Assembly (NCBI RefSeq): GCF_003334305.1
Contig: NZ_QOWS01000055.1
Source: Escherichia coli
GTDB taxonomy: Bacteria; Pseudomonadota; Gammaproteobacteria; Enterobacterales; Enterobacteriaceae
Direction: 5' to 3' (one strand)
Length of the DNA: 2,411 bases
Translations under genes and position numbers: made by a program
Shown: positions 2,353-2,411 of the stretch, in pieces
Numbering within the stretch: position 1 is the first letter of the stretch
How the letters are laid out: each line of letters begins with the position of its first letter
The notes under the pieces: model-generated
Databases searched by the model: none
What the model saw: the letters and a program-made list of their open reading frames with translations, nothing else
Told to the model about the DNA's origin: nothing

Positions 2353-2380
2353 TTGGCCACCTGATGAAAGGTGATATTCT
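2353..2380 (+). promoter_or_regulatory. Putative sigma70 promoter for the downstream gene
   Basis: -35-like TTGGCC (2353..2358), 16-nt spacer, then an extended -10-like TGaTATTCT (2372..2380). This would place the transcription start about 20 nt upstream of ATG 2407. Weak consensus matches, hand-assigned. Confidence 0.25.
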
Positions 2381-2396
2381 CACCACAACACAAAAC

Positions 2397-2402
2397 AGGT
2401 GA
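2397..2402 (+). promoter_or_regulatory. Ribosome-binding site of the downstream gene
   Basis: AGGTGA at 2397..2402, 4 nt upstream of ATG 2407..2409. Confidence 0.4.
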
Positions 2403-2406
2403 CTTA

Positions 2407-2411
2407 ATGAA
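2407..2411 (+). CDS. Probable 5' end of a + strand gene running off the right edge of the window; product unknown
   Basis: ATG at 2407..2409 preceded by a strong Shine-Dalgarno sequence at correct spacing. Only 5 nt (ATGAA) lie inside the window, so nothing can be said about the product. Confidence 0.3.

Follow-up and report, generated by a model that had tools for sequence, protein, structure and literature searches.

The window analysed here is a stretch of 2,411 nucleotides from Escherichia coli (contig NZ_QOWS01000055.1), and its last 77 nucleotides are the left end of an insertion sequence (IS). The element has a length of 1258 bp and is an ISEc31 isoform of the IS911 clade in the IS3 family. 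Since 1175 E. coli genomes match the window at positions 1-2334 only, the boundary of the element was placed between 2334 and 2335. The initial annotation had flagged the region 2364-2409, where a short open reading frame (ORF), here called the mini-ORF, and a hairpin lie directly in front of a gene that starts at 2407. This region corresponds to nucleotides 30-75 of the IS left end. The start of the following gene had been recognised correctly, but the IS context was overlooked, and the gene is orfA of the transposase.

The identity of the element was established from its complete copy, which is found in the sequence L001 at 6335-7592 and is annotated there (Prokaryotic Genome Annotation Pipeline/RefSeq) as 'IS3 family transposase, programmed frameshift'. 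Over its whole length the element is 92.5% identical to ISEc31 and about 64% identical to ISEc52, while in its first 75 nucleotides it shares about 80% identity with IS911 and with ISEc52. The orfA gene codes for 103 amino acid residues. An A6G frameshift motif, AAAAAAG, at IS position 333 leads into orfB, and OrfB matches the model NF033516 for IS3 family transposases (299 bits, 4e-89; cut-off 160 bits). The terminal repeats open with 5'-TG and start TGTAGTGG. The left inverted repeat (IRL) reads TGTAGTGGCACAC...TTGGCCAC and the right inverted repeat (IRR) reads TGTAGTGGTCAAG...TTGGCCAC. Twenty of their first 26 positions match, and the similarity stops after position 26 (2360). The terminal repeats of IS911 are 36 bp long and contain the transposase binding site (PMC2909936). 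By its repeats, its frameshift and its transposase model, the element belongs to the IS3 family. The features of the left end are listed in Table 1.

Table 1. Features of the IS left end in the window, with window positions; P1 and P2 are the outer and the apical helix of the predicted RNA fold
Feature	Position	Strand	Remark
IS left end, first 77 nt	2335..2411	+	window stops 5 nt into orfA
Left terminal inverted repeat (IRL)	2335..2370	.	nominal length of 36 bp, as in IS911
CACACT, candidate -10 of the circle-junction promoter	2343..2348	+	IS 9-14; sequence geometry
-35 hexamer TTGGCC of the predicted resident promoter (pIRL-like)	2353..2358	+	IS 19-24
P1 5' arm CACCUG	2358..2363	+	pairs with 2396-2401; minimum-energy fold
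Mini-ORF of 12 codons	2364..2402	+	judged accidental
P2 hairpin	2370..2384	+	GGUGA 2370-2374, loop UAUUC, UCACC 2380-2384; shortened form of the family helix GAGGUG...CACCUC
Extended -10 of the predicted resident promoter	2372..2380	+	TG 2372-2373, n, TATTCT 2375-2380; hexamer in the P2 loop and first base of the 3' arm
Predicted resident transcript start	2387..2388	+	7-8 nt past the -10 hexamer; from promoter geometry
P1 3' arm CAGGUG	2396..2402	+	arm 2396-2401, overlaps the orfA Shine-Dalgarno sequence AGGUGA 2397-2402
orfA start	2407..2411	+	ATG 2407

The hairpin was found as initially described, with GGTGA and TCACC forming a stem of 5 bp and a loop of 5 nt, TATTC. In the minimum-energy fold of 2335-2411 this hairpin, P2, is enclosed by an outer helix, P1, that had not been listed before and that covers the Shine-Dalgarno sequence of orfA. 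P1 is predicted to join the inner end of the terminal repeat to this Shine-Dalgarno sequence. Taken alone and in one sequence, the hairpin is not above chance. In most relatives P2 is longer, with the arms GAGGUG...CACCUC and often 6-8 bp. A scan of the window with the Rfam covariance models at E up to 1 gave zero matches.

Two other readings of the hairpin were considered and rejected. A terminator or attenuator would need a U-run, and there is none 3' of P2. The left arm of P2 resembles a Shine-Dalgarno sequence, but it does not serve a start codon in the loop, as the spacing is only 2-3 nt and the ATG triplets found in the loop stem from variants of the -10 hexamer and are in varying frames.

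The conservation of the two helices was analysed in related left ends, which were collected from plasmids and by searching 100,044 species genomes once with an alignment of OrfA. In all, 76 distinct left ends were obtained, belonging to Enterobacterales, Vibrio, Photobacterium, Shewanella, Halomonas, Idiomarina and others. The distance from the tip to the ATG is 72-78 nt in all of them except L096 (81). P1 and P2 were named by hand from the sequences and were then tested as a structure of 17 pairs on a MAFFT alignment, with slid-partner and shuffled controls. The cells of the alignment were paired to 79.4%, compared to 32-43% when the partners were slid by 1-3 columns. Eleven pairs were changed on both sides, a number reached in 0 of 500 shuffles, and 50 cells had double-sided changes, compared to 22.5 +/- 3.6 in the shuffles (reached in 0 of 500); as the sequences are related and not independent, these shuffle statistics are upper bounds on the significance. 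Stronger evidence comes from the slid-partner controls and from the switches that recurred on the tree described below. In a second, covariance-model alignment, which was fitted to the structure and therefore leans towards it, 84.5% of the cells were paired, with 92.5% in P2, and double-sided change was seen in each of the 6 P2 pairs and, of the 9 P1 pairs modelled, in 4 (5 of 10 P1 pairs in the MAFFT alignment). Across both alignments, the slid partners were paired in 31-43%.

The single pairs of P1 followed the same pattern. At each of its six core pairs, 68 to 74 of the 76 sequences have a standard pair. The helix CACCUG:CAGGUG alternates with CACCUAAUU:AAUUAGGUG, and in L070 both arms were changed together, UCGCUUA with UGAGUGA. 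The pair beside the Shine-Dalgarno core (IS position 29) is G-C in 42, A-U in 23 and G-U in 3 sequences, and each of its sides changed at least 6 times on a neighbour-joining tree of orfA. For P2, compensated variants were observed as GAGAUG/CAUCUC (L061), GAGAC/GUCUC (L065), GAGUG/CACUC (L082 group), GAAGUG/CACUUC (L083), UAGGUG/CACCUA (L070), GCUGC/GCAGC (L064) and, by wobble only, GAGGUU/GGCCUC (L073 group). In P2, wobble cells (G-U or U-G) number 41 and A-C or C-A cells 10, an asymmetry more in keeping with an RNA of the + strand than with an antisense RNA or a palindrome in the DNA. Judged by this covariation, the hairpin is real and is the apical helix of a conserved nested fold of two helices.

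Two of the related elements differ in this region by larger changes. In L024 (Yersinia nurmii, about 452-503) 23 nt are missing between two CACCU elements, of which one belongs to P1 (5' arm) and the other to P2 (3' arm). The deletion takes out the -10 hexamer and P2 and is of the kind expected from slippage or recombination between short direct repeats. In L068 (Cedecea neteri) one copy is interrupted in its left end by a further IS911-like element, which is inserted at about IS position 60 and just 5' of the Shine-Dalgarno sequence. The covariance model accordingly matches a partial and a full left end back to back, at 363-422 and 423-497.

The fold overlaps with the putative promoter of the element. 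A weak extended -10 resident promoter, TTGGCC-16 nt-TGaTATTCT, is predicted with a start near 2387. This call rests on conservation in the relatives and not on a consensus scan. Among the 76 left ends, TTGGCC is present in 68, the 16-nt spacer in 67, TG at -15/-14 in 72 and TAnnnT in 73. The first two bases of the -10 hexamer are invariant in the alignment, and the promoter bases are the best conserved of the stretch. From the end of the -10 hexamer to the AUG, 25-28 nt were counted in 75 of 76 sequences. The native promoters of the IS3 family are located in the left end (PMC12095673), and IS2 has an extended -10 promoter, pIRL, that begins with TGAT just inside the IRL (PMC3299598). From the position and the geometry of the promoter we infer a start immediately 3' of P2, and the resident mRNA would therefore be devoid of ATG 2364, of P2 and of the 5' arm of P1.

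A second promoter may arise in the excised circle. IS911 has a strong junction promoter there, which is composed of a -35 from the IRR and a -10 from the IRL (PMC9330008). In the element studied here, a candidate junction -35, TTGACC, is found at L001 7581-7586 and ends 6 nt from the right tip. By sequence geometry only, it is separated from CACACT in the left end by a 17-nt spacer across a 3-bp junction. The junction RNA would contain the whole fold, since it would start near IS position 21 and P1 begins at IS position 24.

The accessibility of the ribosome-binding site was calculated by partition-function folding of all 76 elements, where the unpaired probability of the Shine-Dalgarno core and the cost of opening the segment from the Shine-Dalgarno sequence to the AUG were determined. 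In the read-through RNA with 40 nt of host flank, the median unpaired probability was 0.036, and in the RNA from IS position 21 it was 0.003. For the RNA from the predicted resident start a median of 0.30 was obtained. When the upstream part of the RNA from position 21 was dinucleotide-shuffled, the median was 0.225, and the real value was below the shuffled one in 69 of 76 sequences. Opening this segment required a median of 7.1 kcal/mol in the RNA from position 21, compared to 3.6 kcal/mol in the resident-type RNA, and the cost was higher in the former in 72 of 76 sequences.

These results suggest how the fold could act. An RNA that starts upstream, by host read-through or, according to the geometry, at the circle junction, would hold the whole fold, and the ribosome-binding site of orfA would be masked. 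The resident mRNA would begin just 3' of P2 without both masking arms, and its ribosome-binding site would be free. Fold-back inhibition of this kind calls for an inverted repeat that covers the Shine-Dalgarno sequence and is kept by selection; P1 is such a repeat, according to the covariation and the slid-partner controls. The most likely function of the fold, as judged from the predicted structures, is the fold-back masking of orfA translation, and we infer that the masking lowers translation in vivo.

In the main rival explanation, the fold would act chiefly on the junction transcript, as a brake on translation or as a 5'-terminal stem-loop that could stabilise the mRNA or set the amount of OrfA and OrfAB during the short life of the circle, and the protection from outside transcription would be secondary. 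The junction RNA is expected to begin about 2-3 nt before P1, and the -35 near the right tip together with the nAnnnT hexamer at IS 9-14 is consistent with a junction promoter like that documented for IS911 (PMC9330008). The RNA from position 21 also has the highest predicted masking and the highest opening cost. As this is the expected junction start, a purely protective role of the fold would fit imperfectly with these predictions. On the other hand, masking seems at odds with a promoter that is reported to boost the synthesis of the transposase. We regard this explanation as unlikely, and it is compatible with fold-back masking, since the two do not exclude each other.

Besides the relatedness of the sequences and the imperfect fit just mentioned, a number of further observations weigh against fold-back masking. 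The folds of single sequences (2335-2411, 2300-2411 and shorter) had z values of only -0.3 to -1.0 compared to shuffles. RNAalifold on the MAFFT alignment did not return P1 and P2 unaided. It chose only an invariant helix within the repeat, GUGGC:GCCAC, that pairs 2339..2343 with 2356..2360 (IS 5-9 and 22-26) and shows no covariation. In RNAs that include the IS tip, this helix would compete with P1. No site was detected in the left end by a strict scan for the sigma-70 consensus, with which the predicted resident promoter agrees at the TG and at no more than 8 of the 12 hexamer positions. The window isoform itself has the weakest P2, with only 5 bp, as two basal pairs are lost (AAGGUG/CACCAC compared to GAGGUG/CACCUC). 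Its predicted gain in masking is small, 5.9 compared to 3.8 kcal/mol, and in its resident-type RNA the Shine-Dalgarno sequence is predicted to pair weakly with a UCACC inside orfA.

The GTGGC...GCCAC dyad could equally be a feature of the transposase binding site at the DNA level.

The negative folding results also bear on the possibility that the fold has no function as an RNA. The complementarity would then be a by-product of constraints on the DNA, namely of the transposase site GGCCACC, of the extended -10 and of the GGUG in the Shine-Dalgarno sequence, which is complementary to CACC. The most conserved bases are indeed those of the promoter and the repeat (TTGGCC, TG, TA...T), and the cores CACC and GGUG barely vary and are uninformative on pairing. 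Added to this, the single-sequence folds are not significant and RNAalifold did not choose the fold. However, double-sided changes affect every one of the 6 P2 pairs and 4 of 9 P1 pairs, at positions without an evident role in the promoter or the Shine-Dalgarno sequence. The switch from G-C to A-U arose repeatedly, the wobble excess of 41 to 10 is specific for the strand, and the pairing falls to 31-43% with slid partners. An origin from DNA constraints without an RNA function is rather improbable in our view.

The mini-ORF was verified in the sequence. The ATG at 2364-2366 opens a frame of 12 codons, ATG AAA GGT GAT ATT CTC ACC ACA ACA CAA AAC AGG TGA, and the TGA at 2400-2402 lies inside AGGTGA at 2397-2402, with the next ATG (2407-2409) following 4 nt on. 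That the stop codon falls "inside" the Shine-Dalgarno sequence simply reflects the GA of the conserved GGUGA. As the window contains 42 ORFs of at least 20 amino acid residues, an ORF of 12 codons alone is trivial and within chance. The nominal terminal repeat includes the ATG, which falls between the -35 and the -10 of the predicted resident promoter. A purine-rich ribosome-binding site is lacking in the sequence 5' of the ATG (TTTGGCCACCTG), and no obvious one had been seen in the initial annotation either.

The conservation of the mini-ORF frame in homologs had been proposed as a check. An ORF at IS position 30 was found in only one of the 76 distinct left ends, that of the window isoform. 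The closest relatives have ATT (L003, L019 and L021) or ATC (L020) at the position of the ATG, and IS911 has AAC. Other relatives contain unrelated short ORFs elsewhere and in varying frames, with ATGs that come from variants of the -10 hexamer (TATGAT, TAGAATG), and 50 of the 76 left ends are without any short ORF that ends near the Shine-Dalgarno sequence. Among complete E. coli genomes, 925 records have the exact 77-nt left end as their best match, and 956 records have a 96.1% variant. The sampled hits of this variant are annotated as ISEc31 or as generic IS3 family transposase, and one retrieved copy reads ATT. Since the ATT-bearing ISEc31 is equally widespread in E. coli, the start codon is dispensable for a thriving element. 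By this comparison, the mini-ORF is accidental and owes its start codon to a single substitution, from ATT to ATG, in the window isoform.

It is very improbable that the mini-ORF is translated and that termination inside the Shine-Dalgarno sequence controls orfA, by a leader peptide or by coupling of termination and reinitiation. The geometry for it is real. A translating ribosome would open P2 together with the 3' arm of P1 before stopping 4 nt short of the AUG of orfA, and the isoform with the ATG is abundant, as the 925 records show. Opposed to this are the presence of the ATG in 1 of 76 related left ends, the equal abundance of ISEc31 with its ATT (956 records), the lack of a ribosome-binding site at an AUG that adjoins P1, and the unrelated short ORFs of the relatives, which in 50 of 76 are missing near the Shine-Dalgarno sequence. 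In addition, the ATG lies upstream of the predicted resident start at about 2387. If this promoter is placed correctly, the mini-ORF would not be transcribed with the gene from it, an outcome that had been named beforehand as speaking against such an arrangement. The earlier idea of a leader peptide or of translational coupling thus found no support, and the accompanying remark that the mini-ORF may be coincidental was right.

Two observations concern the surroundings of the mini-ORF. In O157:H7 (L100 1437) the RefSeq start of the ISEc31 transposase is a GTG in the 5' arm of P2, equivalent to window position 2371 and in frame 12 codons upstream of the ATG, while the gene of the window isoform is annotated from ATG 2407. 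In view of the conserved Shine-Dalgarno sequence that precedes the ATG, the GTG start appears to be an artefact of the annotation. The window contains two copies of the 11-mer ATGAAAGGTGA, at 1512..1522 and at 2364..2374. A second IS end at 1512 was rejected, because the only hit of the covariance model in the window is at 2335-2409. Chance alone would give about 0.7 repeated 11-mers in 2.4 kb, and the repeat is probably a coincidence.

As a whole, the locus is probably best explained as the left end of an intact ISEc31-like element with an accidental mini-ORF, in which the P1/P2 fold masks the translation of orfA by fold-back in RNAs that were started upstream. We also considered a combination in which the leader discriminates between the promoters, so that the resident mRNA is translatable and the junction or read-through mRNA is masked and possibly stabilised, and in which the T-to-G change has created an upstream ORF that reads through both helices and allows reinitiation at orfA. 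The masking would then be partly defeated and the window isoform could be more responsive to outside transcription. This version is quite improbable.

Fold-back masking in the element studied here was compared with known systems. With IS911 and ISEc31 the element shares the terminal sequence TGnAGTGG...TTGGCCACCTGA...GGTGATATnCTCACC...CAGGTG...ATG, the distance of 72 nt from the tip to the ATG, the A6G frameshift and the -35 TTGACC near the right tip. Unlike ISEc31 (ATT) and IS911 (AAC), the window isoform has the ATG, and its P2 is without the two basal pairs. No description of a P1/P2 fold for IS911 was found in the literature covered, to which the primary IS911 promoter papers did not belong, and we do not claim that the fold is undescribed.

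Sequestered translation signals of the transposase have been reported for IS10 (Davis, Simons & Kleckner 1985) and for IS3 (Sekine et al.), as cited in PMC13181058. As in IS10/Tn10, the left end analysed here has an inverted repeat whose distal arm lies over the translation start of the transposase, and the resident promoter is predicted here to fire between the arms, so that only outside-started RNAs would form the structure. IS50 has a fold-back inhibition of the IS10/Tn10 type and is alike in these features. In contrast to IS10/Tn10, which belongs to the IS4 family and has no sequence relation, two nested helices are found here, and the loop of the apical one holds the -10 hexamer. Moreover, the window element has a candidate junction promoter whose RNA would contain the fold, and the masking is a prediction. 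In IS200, a stem-loop in the 5' untranslated region sequesters the Shine-Dalgarno sequence and keeps the translation of the transposase low (PMC4513863). This is similar in that an RNA hairpin in the left end covers the ribosome-binding site in cis. The IS200 hairpin, however, is in the resident mRNA, is constitutive and lies beside a terminator and an antisense RNA, whereas the resident mRNA here is predicted to escape.

In the left end of IS3A from K-12 (L099 1250-1295), a nested structure of GUGAGU:ACUCAC around CUCU:AGAG was predicted over the Shine-Dalgarno sequence AGAGGUGA (prediction on the single sequence, z -0.4 to -1.2). The primary sequence of IS3 is not alignable with the element studied here and the positions of the arms differ. 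The folding suggests that the two-helix masking design may be family-wide despite the unalignable sequences. The regulatory logic is already known, and no new class of mechanism is involved.

The chromosomal context of this IS copy was also inspected. No target-site duplication of 3-4 bp was found at its flanks, TTAAAC on the left and CTTTTAC on the right. The right flank is missing from the uninterrupted allele in strain 165 (L002, position 5334). As there is no target duplication and the right flank is not that of the uninterrupted allele, the copy marks the breakpoint of a deletion or rearrangement and not a simple insertion, and the missing duplication does not count against the membership in the IS3 family. 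To the right of the IS, genes for DUF932, antirestriction, RadC and YeeU proteins are located, which differ from the DNA that follows position 2334 in strain 165. To the left, 1.3 kb without a long ORF (1033..2334) lie between the gene of a DeoR regulator (247..1032) and the IS. RefSeq annotates in this stretch only a 227-bp 'acetolactate synthase small subunit' pseudogene at 1034..1260 on the - strand, and yet, for those of the 1175 genomes sharing most of the window whose records were listed, the stretch is 99.8-100% conserved.

For genome annotation, the analysis implies that short ORFs and hairpins just 5' of a gene should be checked first against the ends of mobile elements. What looked like an operon leader here is the terminal repeat, the promoter and the 5' leader of an insertion sequence. 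The model clade of IS911 and its very common relatives in E. coli thereby obtain an RNA structure that is supported by covariation and is testable. This structure links the transposase binding site, the predicted resident promoter and the ribosome-binding site within about 50 nt. In conclusion, the fold may explain how these elements avoid being activated by neighbouring transcription, and it may also explain the level of translation from the transient junction promoter.

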